From a phage, in the sequence record PZ347661.1: DNA of 64,000 nt, one strand, 5' to 3'. A program made the translations under genes and the position numbers. This document shows positions 33,313 through 37,367 of the stretch, one piece after another. Each line of letters starts with the position of its first letter. The first letter of the stretch is position 1. The notes beneath the pieces were generated by a model. That model was not told the DNA's origin, ran no database searches, and was given only the letters and a program-made list of their open reading frames with translations.

Positions 33313-33866
33313 TGAAAATCCCAATTGTTGGTGCAGACATTAGTCTCCGCAATTGGGGTTTAGCTCGTGGGATGCTGGACATTGAGTCCGGCGTCTTCGA
33401 GCAGGTCGAACTTAAACTGGTTCAAACTGAAGTTGACCACAACAAACAAGTTCGAACCAACTCCAAAGATATACAAGCCGCTCACGATTTGTTTCTTGGT
33501 TGTGAGGAATGGTTACGGTCTGCTAAAGCAGTATTCGTAGAAGTACCAGTAGGCTCTCAGTCTGCTAACGGTATGAAATCCTATGGAGTATGCGTAGGAT
33601 TAATCGGTGCATTTCGTGCATTGGGTTGTCCAATCTTTGAAGTATCCCCAATTGAAAACAAACTTGCACTGGTCGGTGATAAAACTGCATCTAAGGACAC
33701 GATGATTCGTGCTGCTCATGCCATTTATCCTGAAGCCAACTGGCTCACAGATAAGAAGGGCAAACTTCTGAATAAGAATGAGCACTTAGCAGATGCAATC
33801 GGTGCAATCCATGCTGGTGTAAATCTCCCAGCTTTCCAGAACCTCATTAAGTTATTAAAGGCGTAA
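33312..33866 (+). CDS. RuvC-like Holliday junction resolvase (184 aa)
   Basis: N-terminal VGADISL (catalytic Asp), FVEVP (Glu), C-terminal HLADAIGAIHAG resembling the RuvC HxxDAxxxA motif. Confidence 0.55.
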   Translation: MKIPIVGADISLRNWGLARGMLDIESGVFEQVELKLVQTEVDHNKQVRTNSKDIQAAHDLFLGCEEWLRSAKAVFVEVPVGSQSANGMKSYGVCVGLIGAFRALGCPIFEVSPIENKLALVGDKTASKDTMIRAAHAIYPEANWLTDKKGKLLNKNEHLADAIGAIHAGVNLPAFQNLIKLLKA

Positions 33867-34320: not shown

Positions 34321-34551
34321 TCTGGTAGGTGGCTCAGAAGCTGCTGCTATTTGTGGTAGTGTTCATAATTCTGATGCTATTGCTTATCAGGATTCTGGAC
34401 GTGTCGGCTCCATACATAGCATTTATCATCACTGTGCTTATACTTTGGAAACTCAGTGATAAAAACGGTGGTGACAAGCCGCCAGACTAACAACAACCGA
34501 ACCAGTGTGCAGGAATACTCTCCCCTGTGCATTGGTTCAACTGAGACTAAT

Positions 34552-34722
34552 ATGAACAAATTTACTATTCACTGGCTCAATGGAAAGGTTAGTTCTTTCA
34601 TGGGTGGAGAACCTGTTGAAGGAAAGAAAGCATTTCACATTGAATCAGAAGGCTGCAAAATCTTAATACCATACGCTTGGTATAAAGATGGTGAAGTAGA
34701 AGCATTAAAAAAGAGTAGTTAA
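34552..34722 (+). CDS. hypothetical small protein (56 aa)
   Basis: Internal ATG of track ORF 34456; weak RBS. Confidence 0.25.
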   Translation: MNKFTIHWLNGKVSSFMGGEPVEGKKAFHIESEGCKILIPYAWYKDGEVEALKKSS

Positions 34723-35144
34723 TATCGTGAAGGGTTCTGTTAGAATCCTTTGAGATAGGAACTCCTATCATAACCTTTCTTAACTTAATCTTTGCCGTAT
34801 GGCACTGACGCTAGGGGTGGCCCCCCATCCGTCAGGTAGACTATTTTAAGAATGGGTTATCACAGCAAATGTAAAGCAACATTCGGGTTAATCAATGGCC
34901 TCTCCCTATAGGGGCCATTTCTGAATCTTAGGCTATATCCCAAAGGTTAATATCTTTGGGATAAGGCTTCAGATCCCTTATCAACTAACCGCTCAATGTT
35001 GAGCATTTTAATCACATAAGCCCCTATATGGGCTGGGTTAAATGTCGGATAGCATAGCTACCTACAGCATCGAATTGTTAGGTCTTACATGCAAACTAAA
35101 TCATAGGGTAAAGAGGGACTCGTCCTCCCTCCCCTATTATAATG

Positions 35145-35214
35145 GTCGGGGTAGCGCGTAGGCATGTGCAGAAGGTCGCTACTTCTCTCGCTGGTTCGAA
35201 TCCAGCCCCCGACC
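35145..35214 (+). tRNA. tRNA-like element A (about 70 nt, isotype undetermined)
   Basis: 7-bp acceptor pairing GTCGGGG/CCCCGAC, U8-A9, T-arm GCTGG-TTCGAAT-CCAGC, possible anticodon stem AGAAG/CTTCT; hand fold leaves a short variable loop; no encoded CCA. Confidence 0.4.
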
Positions 35215-35765
35215 TACTGACATCCTATCAATGAGTACATTAGGCTAACGTGCGGAGGTTTACACTGTAGCCGGTGTAGGTGGAGAAGACGGCAGGATAG
35301 CTACCTGTGCTTAGTGTACTCTTTGATAGTTTTCGTAAGCGATTATGCGGTTTTTTAGAAACGAACCAATAACATAAATGCAAACGATGATGTTGTTCTG
35401 ATGGCGGCGTAATAGCCTATAAGTCAGCAAGGTCTTCCGATTCCTTGTAAACAAATTCGGCGCAGTGGCCCGCTGTGATTAATAATGGGCACACAACAGG
35501 TAAGAGCATTTAGGCTACTGAGAAATCATCCGAGGCAATCAGACCTATCTTCTGTTAAGTGCTCTTTCCGTTGTGGTGAATGTGCAGGCTGATGCGCAGT
35601 GGGACGTGGCTGACTCACGAGGATGGCTCAAGCGAATAAGCAAGCTCGACGCCGCCGAATAAGCGCCTTATGCCGGAGATCAGTACCGGCCACCACAACA
35701 AGTCCAGACGATATCTGAGTGACTATAAAAACAGATGGAGCCAGGTGGAATCCCTGGCAACTAAT

Positions 35766-35831
35766 TCCGGTGTAGGTACTAGTGTCGTGCACGGCATGAG
35801 TGTTCTGGTTCGAGTCCAGACGCCGGAACCA
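35766..35831 (+). tRNA. tRNA-like element B (only about 63 nt plus encoded CCA; non-canonical)
   Basis: Acceptor pairing TCCGGTG/CGCCGGA (one G-U), T-arm TCTGG-TTCGAGT-CCAGA, discriminator A and CCA encoded; too short for a standard D plus anticodon arm. Confidence 0.3.
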
Positions 35832-35833
35832 AT

Positions 35834-35957
35834 TACCAGTTGCACGAGATGGCTTGATATGTTCAAGTTTGGACTAAGTGTGACACCGCTAGATTGGAGA
35901 GCTGCTGCGGTAAGCTATAGACTCCAACCGGGGGTTCGAATCCCTCACTGGTAACCA
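35834..35957 (+). tRNA. tRNA-like element C (perfect 7-bp acceptor pairing spanning about 121 nt; possible insertion)
   Basis: TACCAGT at 35834 pairs with ACTGGTA at 35947; T-arm GGGGG-TTCGAAT-CCCTC; discriminator A and CCA encoded; internal length exceeds any standard tRNA. Confidence 0.3.
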
Positions 35958-36401
35958 ATTCAAAGTAGCATTGCACTAATCCATCCCGGAGTTCAAAGGC
36001 CAAACATGGAGCAGTGCTACTTTGAATTAGAAAGATTATGGGGGTAAGTCGTAACCATACGACGGCGTAAGTACCAGATGAGACTTCTGGACGCCCCTAC
36101 CAGATTTGGGGTGTAACAGTTAGATCCAGTTGCCGGAAGTGCTATTCTAGATACGCTGCCAATGTGTGAACGGTAAGGCTGTACAGGACTCGGACTCCCA
36201 CCTCAAACCAAAGTCGCCAGGTACTTATGGCAAACGGGTAGTAACGAACTAGTCATTCGTCAAACGCCCAACCTATTATGAGTCAGCAAGAACGCCTTCA
36301 CTTAAACTTAAACAAAAAAGCTTAACGCAATAATTATGTAGGGGTATGTAAGGATTGCGAAGAAGGAGCCAGTTAAAGTCTGGCATGGCTCAACCTATTA
36401 T

Positions 36402-36475
36402 GCCCACTTAGCTTAGACAGGGAAAGCAACCGACTAATAATCGGAAGGTCACTGGTTCAAATCCAGTAGTGGGTA
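36402..36475 (+). tRNA. tRNA candidate D (74 nt cloverleaf, anticodon uncertain)
   Basis: Acceptor GCCCACT/AGTGGGT (G-U first pair), D stem GCTT/AAGC, anticodon stem CCGA/TCGG with loop CTAATAA, T-arm ACTGG-TTCAAAT-CCAGT; the hand fold gives an unusual AAU anticodon. Confidence 0.45.
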
Positions 36476-36791
36476 CTTATTTGCTGCAATATTCCCATAG
36501 GGAATGGTGCCGTATACGCCACCTAGTTTCTGGTGAAACTCCAGATGCAGCAATCCATTCAGCAGTAACATAGTCCTGATTGCATTGCACTCTAAAGACA
36601 ACACTGGTAAGACAGTCCAGTGACTGCTAATGTACTGTTATTCCCCTCGACGGGAATTTCGCTAGTGAAGGTAACACTTAAAAATCCAAACCTACGTCTT
36701 ACTACTATCGGGCTATCAACCCACAGTCGCTTAACACACTAGTGGTAGTAGTTTGACGGCCTAGCCTCGTTAGCTGCGTTAAAGCTACTAA

Positions 36792-36817
36792 GTCCCTCTT
36801 CGGAGGGACTTTTTTAT
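36792..36817 (+). terminator. intrinsic terminator
   Basis: AGTCCCTC-TTCG-GAGGGACT followed by TTTTTT. Confidence 0.7.
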
Positions 36818-36986
36818 TTGAGTATTAATAAATGGATATTCAGGATGATTGACCTAATTTCTACTCCGTATGCCTATGAGGTAACGGATAACCGAGGACA
36901 TAAGTACTTGGTATTTGCAGGTAGCGTAGCCTATAACAACGCAGTAATGTTTAAGTACAAACTCAAACCACTCTATGAGGCTAATA

Positions 36987-37367
36987 ATGGCAACAGTAAG
37001 TAAAGAAGCAATCGAAGCTAAGATTAAGAGCATTTACTTTTTCAATGGTGCTGACGCAGTGAAGTCTGCATTCGTTGATCCATCTGCACTTCCAGCAGAT
37101 GATTTGGCTAACCTGGGTCTGACAACTCATTGCATTATCATCCTGGAAAATGGATTCAAAGTTGAAGGCGTATCCGCCTGCGTAGACCCGGCTATCTATG
37201 ATGAGCAAAAAGGTCGTCAGTATGCATATGAAAATGCATTCAATAAGATTTGGGAATTAGAAGGTTATCTGCTACGTCAGGCACTGCATGAGAAAGAAGA
37301 GACTGCTAAAGCTCTGGCTTCCTTTGCAGAAAACAATACCTGTGATGGTGGTGGTTGTACAATCTGA
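36987..37367 (+). CDS. hypothetical protein (126 aa)
   Basis: ATG with GAGG RBS. Confidence 0.5.
   Translation: MATVSKEAIEAKIKSIYFFNGADAVKSAFVDPSALPADDLANLGLTTHCIIILENGFKVEGVSACVDPAIYDEQKGRQYAYENAFNKIWELEGYLLRQALHEKEETAKALASFAENNTCDGGGCTI

Follow-up and report, generated by a model that had tools for sequence, protein, structure and literature searches.

A tmRNA-like tag RNA with complementarity to host tmRNA in the small-RNA island of an N4-like phage

Trans-translation is the main bacterial pathway of ribosome rescue and protein quality control, and its tag has always been assumed to be fixed by the cell's own transfer-messenger RNA (tmRNA, SsrA). ClpX reads the last three residues of this tag, the host degron being A-L-A-A. 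A two-piece form of tmRNA exists in alpha- and beta-proteobacteria and in cyanobacteria (Rfam models RF01849-51 and RF04321), and mobile elements encode base-pairing small RNAs (sRNAs) or anti-sRNAs such as AgvB and AsxR of enterohemorrhagic Escherichia coli prophages. Phages also carry tmRNAs of their own: a 2025 tmRNA database paper counts 79 of them in addition to forms without a coding sequence (CDS), truncated hits being rejected there. A CDS-less tmRNA of mycobacteriophage DS6A, consisting of the tRNA-like domain only, inhibits E. coli tmRNA, as cited in PMC11915505. Here we analyze a 64,000-nucleotide (nt) stretch of phage DNA (sequence record PZ347661.1; hereafter the window), in which an island at 34723-36819 encodes a "tag RNA": a segment antisense to host tmRNA, a tmRNA-like tag template and two pseudoknots. 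This RNA is apparently derived from tmRNA but devoid of its tRNA-like domain, and apparently belongs to an undescribed class aimed at trans-translation. No such form is present in the 2025 database paper, and literature searches on tmRNA-like, antisense-to-tmRNA or phage tag RNAs and on the tag peptides found no relevant description.

Anatomy and reading frame of the tag RNA

Its BLAST matches among phage records assign the window to the G7C/Bp4/ECBP1-like, N4-related coliphages (Gamaleyavirus). The island was compared with 16 GenBank and 18 IMG/VR relatives, single loci being referred to by L-numbers. The parts of the tag RNA are as follows.

35327-35490, + strand: tag RNA core, a tmRNA-like tag template and then two pseudoknots, with variable 3' extensions to about 35699
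about 35327, + strand: putative 5' start of the tag RNA, sequence UAGUUUUCG
35327-35357, + strand: antisense segment with blocks (U)AGUUUUCGU, GCGAUUAU and GCGGUUUUUUA
35358-35379, + strand: 22-nt linker ending in ACAUAAAU, similar to what precedes the resume codon in tmRNA (U at -5, A at -4)
35380-35415, + strand: tag frame GCA AAC GAT GAT GTT GTT CTG ATG GCG GCG TAA TAG, i.e., ANDDVVLMAA and two stops
35427-35460, + strand: pseudoknot PK-a, S1 GCAAGG/CCTTGT and S2 CCGA/TCGG
35462-35490, + strand: pseudoknot PK-b, S1 GCAG/CTGT and S2 GCCC/GGGC, with invariant GAUUAAUAA between

The tag frame has no start codon, is preceded by an in-frame stop 8 codons upstream and ends with a stop codon in a small hairpin; ANDDVVLMAA reads as a typical proteobacterial ssrA-type tag. 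The host tmRNA counterpart of the linker end reads ...AAAAAAUAGUC directly before GCA, and we take the E. coli equivalents of the U and A at -5/-4 to be U85 and A86. A length of 22 nt is kept in most subfamilies (alignment A1). In a permissive Rfam scan, 35309-35461 scored 31.2 bits (E 8e-4) with tmRNA_permuted RF04321 (gathering 47), 20.2 bits with beta_tmRNA RF01850 (gathering 84) and 12.4 bits with RF00023 (gathering 47). The alignment includes the linker stretch and falls on ...CAUAAAU GCA AAC GAU GAU..., i.e., the resume and tag stretch, as tmRNA matches do in 12/16 relatives scanned.

To describe variation within the family, 97 unique cores were collected by IMG/VR pattern scans and BLAST against phage records. 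They contain 25 distinct open reading frame (ORF) sequences for 12 peptides, all with 10 codons and a stop, including ANDDVVLMAA, ANDNVFLAVA, ANDEQFLAVA, ANDDQFLAVA, ANEEAYLMVA, ANEEMYLAVA and ANDNEMRAVA. Within the ANDDVVLMAA group all differences are synonymous, variability is highest at third codon positions, and the ratio of nonsynonymous to synonymous change (pN/pS) over this 30-nt frame is 0.54 compared with 2.53 and 0.79 in the other two frames. The phage tags retain AND at the N-terminus and, as residue 6 (residue 7 when the tmRNA-borne Ala is counted), an aromatic or hydrophobic amino acid; they shift the Leu and alter the last three residues.

Covariation supports both pseudoknots. 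Among 52 sequences, the PK-a stems are paired in 100% and 99.5% of cells, with compensatory changes at 5/10 pairs, and PK-b S1 is paired in 100%, with 2/4 pairs compensatory. PK-b S2 occurs in at least four mutually complementary versions (GCCC/GGGC, GCCCAC/GTGGGC, GGCGGGAG/CTCCCGCC and GCCCTGA/TCAGGGC). Pooled over these two H-type pseudoknots, 99.9% of cells are paired and 7/14 pairs compensatory, versus 33-51% paired in slid controls. A counterpart of tmRNA pseudoknot 1 (PK1) is missing from the RNA, whose GCGG strand has no internal CCGC partner.

A tRNA-like domain was looked for in several arrangements. ARAGORN, run on the window and 30 relatives, makes no tmRNA call, and the alanine identity pair G3:U70 occurs in none of the island acceptor stems (U3-A70 in the tRNA-like module M1; C3-G70 in the tRNA-shaped modules M2 and M3, all listed below). 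A permuted, two-piece gene, in which the helix H1 flanking the tag RNA would be P2 and its insert the tRNA-like domain, is ruled out by inserts that are hypervariable and mostly without a T-arm; where a T-arm is present (FSL SP-058 type, N4), it adjoins the 3' strand, which is the wrong order. A one-piece tmRNA ending at the CCA of M2 or M3 finds no fitting 5' acceptor strand upstream of the tag, M2 and M3 being closed upon themselves. In other phages the unit is delimited by its own signals: the siphophage Sa179lw and the Felix O1-like EC6 possess consensus sigma-70 promoters (TTGACA-17-TAGATT and TTGACA-17-TATAGT) that would put the RNA start 0-5 nt before AGUUUUCG, 45-50 nt upstream of the resume codon, and the Sa179lw unit extends to a terminator-like hairpin with no T-arm in it. 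Since ARAGORN is silent, Rfam scores stay below gathering, both topologies fail, promoters define the starts and the Sa179lw unit is free of T-arms, we describe a tag-plus-pseudoknot RNA without a tRNA-like domain. Recent capture of E. coli ssrA was likewise rejected, local alignment of every island module with ssrA giving z<=1.3, and a supposed ssrA resemblance, "UUGGACUAAG", proved wrong against the actual ssrA sequence.

Complementarity to host tmRNA and distribution of the cassette

The antisense segment was compared with E. coli tmRNA (fetched sequence L035), using shuffled sequences and 376 random 363-nt windows of this phage genome as controls. Three blocks match as follows.

(U)AGUUUUCGU: target ACGAAAACU(A), tmRNA nt 97-106, tag codons 3-6
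GCGAUUAU: target AUAGUCGC, tmRNA nt 85-91, -5 to +2 of the resume site
GCGGUUUUUUA: target UAAAAAGCCGC, tmRNA nt 68-79, PK1 3' strand

Overall, the arm is antisense to tmRNA nt 68-106, which include the 3' half of PK1 as well as the resume codon and the first six tag codons. RNAduplex yields -40.3 kcal/mol; shuffled sequences reach -23±3.5 and genomic windows -20.2±2.9 (minimum -29.3), and pairing with the RNA's own tag region comes to only -13.8 kcal/mol. The seed cannot pair its own frame because the phage tag differs from the host tag exactly at codons 4-6. With the unfolding of both RNAs charged, RNAcofold retains 29 intermolecular pairs and a free-energy gain (ddG) of -12.7, versus -3.0±1.7 when the 5' 44 nt are shuffled. 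The sense part, in turn, resembles tmRNA from position -15 on (CCACAAAGAUAAAU before GCA in the phage RNA, CCGCAAAAAAUAGUC before GCA in tmRNA). The RNA therefore looks like antisense (tmRNA 68-106), a linker and sense (tmRNA from about nt 75) joined in one molecule.

The best duplex of 22/22 family representatives lies within tmRNA nt 54-115, with z-scores of -3.0 to -7.5 in N4-like, HK620, Sa179lw and Ackermannviridae types and of -1.8 to -5.2 in prophage types; prophage-type members form a nearly continuous duplex of ~40 bp (-48 kcal/mol). GUUUUCGU and GCGACU are retained even in the copy of an SSU5-like plasmid, the most divergent one read. Tested against 111 gammaproteobacterial tmRNAs, the arms pair most strongly with the E. 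coli/Enterobacteriaceae type (-41 to -48 kcal/mol) and less well with Yersinia and Pasteurellaceae tmRNAs (-29 to -35, i.e., 8-15 kcal/mol worse). These 111 host tmRNAs encode mostly ANDENYALAA-like tags, and none ends in L-M-A-A, L-A-V-A or L-M-V-A. Host-phage compensatory changes, sought in Salmonella, Erwinia and Acinetobacter-labelled phages, were in no case informative, the target being too conserved within Enterobacterales for more than clade-level specificity to be seen. Other candidate partners of tmRNA or of the tag core (M2, M3, the leader U60, inserts and the 3' domain) were rejected, with |z|<3 in duplex tests, and no further module of the island was complementary to tmRNA. Anatomy and complementarity of the tag RNA are solid.

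The ~180-nt core is present in 711 phage records, from Salmonella, Escherichia, Klebsiella and Shigella phages of N4-like, P22-like, Felix-like, Ackermannviridae and several siphophage types, with HK620 among the carriers; among the matches listed it lies mostly in unannotated sequence and is never annotated as an RNA gene. It also occurs in 350/5426 complete E. coli genomes (6%), in 360 copies, 141 chromosomal and 219 on plasmids of 94-115 kb. A divergent copy on one of the plasmids of about 110 kb (L233, NZ_CP027358.1, 340-520) encodes the tag ANEEVYLAVA and has GUUUUCGUUGAGACGCGACU at its 5' end. The window shares 90-91% identity with Sa179lw and FSL SP-058 over the tag cassette, the flanks being unmatched. 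Because the window and Sa179lw cores are 91% identical in unrelated flanks, we conclude that the element is transferred horizontally as a cassette. In HK620 (L036, 1244-1951), the tag RNA is part of the pR' late leader, flanked by qut and the tR' terminator, and by analogy with lambda 6S RNA it would be transcribed constitutively in lysogens.

A possible tag substitution and its rivals

As a tentative reading, to which we give somewhat less than an even chance, the tag RNA would dock on host tmRNA and substitute a phage-specified tag, the island around it being a + strand array of small-RNA cassettes. The island is probably transcribed as long precursors. RNase P and 3' trimming to CCA would process these at the tRNA-shaped modules, and an RNase III-type activity would cleave them at long "platform" helices. 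With its free 5' end, (U)AGUUUUCGU, the tag RNA could then seed on the single-stranded host tag codons 3-6, and the duplex would spread across the host resume site into PK1. In this state the host template would be masked, the phage template would be tethered to the host alanyl-tRNA-like domain and SmpB, and the intermolecular helix would replace PK1; hairpin substitutions of PK1 have been reported as tolerated. Stalled ribosomes would still be rescued, with nascent chains receiving a phage tag that ends L-M-A-A, L-A-V-A or L-M-V-A. A change from ...YALAA to, e.g., ...VLMAA or ...FLAVA would likely mean that ribosomes are rescued but the products are not targeted to ClpXP in the normal way. 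Of this scheme we infer four steps, namely tmRNA binding in the cell, the swap of templates, the processing and what becomes of tagged proteins; the data show the anatomy and distribution of the element, its complementarity to tmRNA and its conservation, with covariation and constraint at the codon level. A broader version, in which phage RNAs of a widespread class would combine with host SsrA into a chimeric tmRNA of two molecules and rewrite the degradation tag on every protein trans-translated during infection or lysogeny, is more doubtful still.

Several observations weigh against tag substitution. We know of no trans-translation in which the template and the tRNA-like domain reside on separate molecules, and the proposed duplex would destroy PK1. 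The linker measures 22 nt compared with about 10 nt in the host, the SSU5-like plasmid copy lacks the U-A at -5/-4, and Felix-like pairing is much weaker (-23 to -29 kcal/mol, z -0.8 to -2.5), with the GCGG block missing. The tag element is dispensable, being absent from N4 and from the relatives L012, L013 and L016, and the tRNA-shaped modules are left functionally unexplained. Part of the family set was gathered by patterns in which the first tag codons are fixed, making these codons appear overly invariant; the pN/pS estimate stems from just 30 nt, and the last codons are also inside the hairpin.

The main rival is a pure antisense inhibitor, whose binding over the resume site would shut down tmRNA or lead to its destruction (e.g., by RNase III), with tag and pseudoknots being inherited or serving stability or ribosome proximity. 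Strong and specific complementarity requires nothing beyond antisense action, the nearly continuous prophage-type duplex fits it, and the tmRNA-inhibiting CDS-less RNA of DS6A, as cited in PMC11915505, provides a precedent. Left unexplained are the retention of the 10-codon frame, its stop and the -5/-4 UA across phage families with synonymous or conservative change, as well as the covariation of two pseudoknots, and we regard pure inhibition as possible but rather unlikely. The remaining explanations are less likely again. The tmRNA-like layout of tag and pseudoknots and its high conservation in many phages would suit a decoy or sponge, a mimic of the tmRNA body that titrates S1, RNase R or extra SmpB sites or distracts a host nuclease attacking tmRNA. 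Such a role needs neither antisense complementarity to tmRNA nor conservation at the amino-acid level, and the pseudoknots have no significant sequence similarity to E. coli tmRNA; we consider it improbable.

Decay is the next explanation to weigh: the island could be a graveyard of tRNA and tmRNA genes, with the tag as a tmRNA pseudogene fragment and the odd modules as dead tRNAs persisting as recombination scars or spacers. M1 does decay in relatives, modules are gained and lost, canonical tRNAs of N4 occupy the same place and orphan T-arms are found in some inserts. Against this stand the compensatory changes in M2, M3, the tRNA-Ile and both pseudoknots, the 90-91% identity of the tag cassette with that of the unrelated phages Sa179lw and FSL SP-058 despite unmatched flanks, and the dedicated consensus promoters of the cassette in other phages, which together leave the graveyard with a very small probability. 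The smallest goes to translation independent of tmRNA, either of an AUG mini-ORF (AUG CAA ACG AUG AUG UUG UUC UGA, MQTMMLF) or, through a start at GCA resembling an internal ribosome entry site, of a free 10-mer. There is indeed an AUG in the +2 frame, 2 nt before the resume codon, but the mini-ORF is not conserved (MQTMMLF, MQTKKRI, MQTMM, MQTKKCIWP...; pN/pS 0.79-2.5), there is no Shine-Dalgarno sequence, and the GCA frame is start-less behind its upstream stop.

If docking on tmRNA is true, be it to silence it or to swap its template, it would constitute a new viral route for taking over host translation quality control; it would also represent a novel type of split tmRNA and show a natural example of an ssrA tag reprogrammed in trans. 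Because the cassette is found in 6% of complete E. coli genomes, a broad effect on host physiology is possible, and since HK620 carries its copy in a pR' leader that is constitutive, the effect may extend to lysogens. Many of the ~700 carrier phages, which include N4-like, Felix O1-like and Vi1-like types as well as P22/lambda-like prophages, are therapy candidates.

The surrounding island and comparison with known systems

An earlier note on this DNA, made from its sequence, had pointed to an ORF-free island of ~2 kb with tRNA-like modules, unusual for a packed phage genome. Between the stop of the ORF at 34456-34722 and the terminator at 36790-36811 the longest ORF has 94 amino acids (aa; 35670-35954), and the ORF-free observation is correct because nothing longer is open in this interval and that ORF overlies tRNA-like modules and cassettes that relatives gain or lose. 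No conserved ORF was found in 34723-36819 by comparison with relatives. The gap itself is real; its description as unusual holds only in part, since it recurs with 1.5-2.3 kb between gp46/47-like genes and the gp48 homologue in all Gamaleyavirus relatives, where annotation is limited to odd tRNAs (Ile, "Xle", "Cys", "Ala", "OTHER", pseudo) or rows of tiny predicted ORFs. The gp47-gp48 gap of N4 harbors 4 canonical tRNAs (Asn, Ser, Thr, Pro) and some non-canonical modules also present in the window, and by this comparison the island is a small-RNA region homologous to the N4 tRNA region. Besides the tag RNA it comprises the following features.

34723-35143, + strand: block A, conserved non-coding leader (87-97% identity, 16/16 Gamaleyavirus relatives)
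35144-35215, + strand: M1, tRNA-like cloverleaf (ARAGORN "Ala-CGC"), T-arm GGTTCGAATCC, no CCA, U3-A70
35225-35329, + strand: platform helix H1, CTATCAATGAGTACA (35225-35239) pairing with TGTACTCTTTGATAG (35315-35329), hypervariable insert inside
35494-35573, + strand: platform helix H2, CAACAGGTAAGAGCA pairing with TGCTCTTTCCGTTG, hypervariable insert
35574-35699, + strand: 3' domain, variable, of the tag-RNA transcript; closing stem GTGGTG...CACCAC
35700-35764, + strand: U60, conserved leader, always 5' of M2, in 24 loci including N4
35765-35831, + strand: M2, 64-nt tRNA-shaped RNA plus encoded CCA, with 8-bp acceptor, central ~10-bp arm with tetraloop and canonical T-arm GGTTCGAGTCC
35833-35957, + strand: M3, 122-nt tRNA-shaped RNA plus encoded CCA, with covarying acceptor, canonical T-arm GGTTCGAATCC and two extra hairpins replacing D and anticodon arms
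35958-36028, + strand: platform helix H3, ATTCAAAGTAGCA pairing with TGCTACTTTGAAT, hypervariable insert
36040-36098, + strand: M4, three-way-junction RNA with GGGG/CCCC closing stem and two hairpins, conserved in 9 loci, loops vary
36107-36400 and 36555-36790: conserved blocks
36402-36476, + strand: tRNA-Ile, anticodon AAU (ARAGORN; Rfam tRNA RF00005), CCA not encoded, T-arm GGTTCAAATCC
36481-36553, + strand: M6, cloverleaf-shaped RNA, not a tRNA, with 8-bp closing stem and T-like hairpin with TGAAACT loop, read from sequence
36790-36819, + strand: intrinsic terminator closing the island, GC-rich 9-bp stem (span also given as 36790-36811) followed by a T-run

No sigma-70 promoters above background were detected inside the window's island, and its terminator is annotated as such in PhAPEC5 and PhAPEC7. 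Block A is absent from N4, and a 39-aa ORF within it (35042-35161) is broken by indels in L003. Upstream of the island, a 53-aa hydrophobic ORF (34329-34490) is conserved with N4, where it lies between gp47 and the tRNA region. Just 3' of the island, the gp48 homologue (36975-37367) carries the label "anti-CRISPR protein" in the records of 24-32N and Mimir124.

The four T-arms with acceptor pairings described in the earlier note are all in place (35144-35215, 35765-35831, 35833-35957 and 36402-36476), as are the two encoded CCA ends, those of M2 and M3, and a fifth cloverleaf-shaped element with a TGAAACT loop, M6, which recurs in only one other locus. ARAGORN and Rfam, which the note had proposed as checks, both returned a tRNA model for the element at 36402-36475 (63.7 bits against RF00005, gathering 29) and agreed on anticodon AAU in the loop CTAATAA. 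It is the only sequence in the island with the RF00005 features of cloverleaf, 7-nt anticodon loop, T-loop and gathering score; the statement that nothing else folds as a cloverleaf was too strict, as ARAGORN folds M1 also. Compensatory changes in its acceptor (C2-G71 to U2-A71) and anticodon stems, and a loop that is invariant in 15 relatives, in which CCA is mostly not encoded, identify 36402-36476 as a real tRNA with an A34 anticodon, unusual for bacteria. A related N4-like contig (L025, 9535-9610) contains an amber-suppressor-like ARAGORN call, "tRNA-Pyl(cta)", inside a canonical tRNA array.

M1 is probably a decaying or pseudo tRNA: its best Rfam score, 31.4 bits, is a sub-threshold match to the tRNA-Sec model (gathering 47), it is found in just 5 relatives, where its acceptor and anticodon stems have changed without compensation, and one record annotates it as tRNA-Pseudo. 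For M2, M3 and M6, ARAGORN made no call and Rfam gave no tRNA match at E<=10. The RNAalifold consensus fold of M2 comprises 23 pairs, 4 of them compensatory, and that of M3 40 pairs with 5 compensatory; in relatives such changes affect the acceptor, T-stem and inner hairpins of both, and M2 is identical in phage N4. Judged by these alignments, the structures of M2, M3 and the tRNA-Ile exceed chance. M2 and M3 cannot decode because their consensus folds have neither a D-stem nor a 7-nt anticodon loop. They, U60 and other blocks may punctuate processing or act as tRNA mimics in their own right. The three options offered earlier (tRNAs; tRNAs that are degenerate or contain inserts; tRNA-like RNAs serving a different role) hence each fit some module, namely the tRNA-Ile, M1, and M2 with M3, respectively. 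The overall interpretation was only partly supported, having overlooked the tag element at 35327-35490, the cassettes and the platform helices.

Across relatives the island is a mosaic, with blocks swapped at sharp breakpoints, many of which are ...AACCA/ATT... junctions immediately 3' of a CCA end (35827-35836 and 35953-35960 in the window). M3 is exactly missing at this junction in L005 and L009, and stands directly 3' of the tag core in L014, L015, L027, L029 and L031. The short conserved CCA joints suggest that modules are exchanged by recombination. Platform helices keep their stems around unrelated inserts. H1, the 3' strand of which adjoins the 5' end of the tag RNA, shows the compensatory variants CCATCGGGGAGTACA/TGTACTCCCCGATGG and GAGCACC/GGTGCTC, and in phages with their own promoter the tag RNA begins at this point without H1; its inserts are unrelated among phages. 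The H2 stem is maintained with other inserts in relatives, HK620 and Sa179lw, with a perfect complement in L006. H3 has the compensatory variant CGAGGTAGTG.../...CTACCCCG in L027 and L029 and inserts that vary among phages, one of which, in L031, bears a T-arm. We infer that these helices are processing stems (RNase III-type for H1) with tips that are free to vary. A T-arm-bearing insert (GGTTACCGC..AAGAAGTGAAAAATGTT..CCCAATTAGGTTCRAMTCCTAAACCAG) is seen in different platform helices, in N4 (L110, 1438-1550) and as the H1 insert of L017 and L020; it behaves like a mobile tRNA-like cassette without a free acceptor end. The 35574-35699 domain is common to L005, L009, L018 and partly HK620, and is replaced by another domain in L003, L006, L008 and L011. 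The island also illustrates the evolution of phage tRNA regions, in which cassettes are exchanged at CCA junctions and on platform helices.

Further similarities concern single blocks. The first ~60 nt of U60 are also found in unrelated siphophages of Klebsiella, Salmonella and Shigella (SopranoGao, VLCpiS10a, 9NA, DS8, Segz_1), and its start, AGTCCAGACG, repeats the M2 3' T-stem and acceptor start (35817-35826). Non-coding 36107-36200 is 96.8% identical to N4 EF056009 33226-33319, and non-coding 36561-36695 is 75% identical to about 33441-33576 of the same record. The motif ATGTAGGGGTATGTAAGG (36322-36353) recurs in the 3' part of the transcription unit that encodes the Sa179lw tag RNA, and N4 has a similar stretch.

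Compared with known systems, the island shares with the phage tRNA arrays of N4, T4, T5 and Felix O1 its genomic niche, the polycistronic + strand layout, T-arms, CCA ends and cassette turnover, but most of its modules are non-decoding, and long platform helices with hypervariable tips part the cassettes. With tmRNA (SsrA; RF00023), the tag RNA has in common a GCA resume codon after UA at -5/-4, a start-less 10-codon AND...A frame, a stop in a hairpin and H-type pseudoknots after the tag. It differs in lacking the acceptor stem, T-arm, CCA, G3:U70 and PK1, in its extra 5' segment antisense to tmRNA, and in tag C-termini (LMAA, LAVA, LMVA) that none of the 111 host tmRNAs has. AgvB/AsxR-type RNAs resemble it as mobile-element RNAs that pair with a host non-coding RNA and redirect its activity, whereas the predicted target is here tmRNA and the RNA itself carries a translatable template and pseudoknots. 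The DS6A tmRNA, as cited in PMC11915505, is likewise a phage-encoded partial tmRNA interfering with host trans-translation, yet a mirror image: it keeps the tRNA-like domain without a tag, and the present RNA does the reverse and adds an antisense arm. Two-piece tmRNA likewise has a coding RNA, which functions only in a base-paired state with a separate acceptor RNA; its models give the best Rfam similarity, and H1 occupies the place of P2 in the permuted gene. Its pieces, however, come from one permuted gene and are joined by the acceptor stem and P2, whereas the H1 insert is hypervariable and not a tRNA-like domain, and the presumed partner of the phage RNA is the host's complete one-piece tmRNA, paired at the PK1, resume and tag region.

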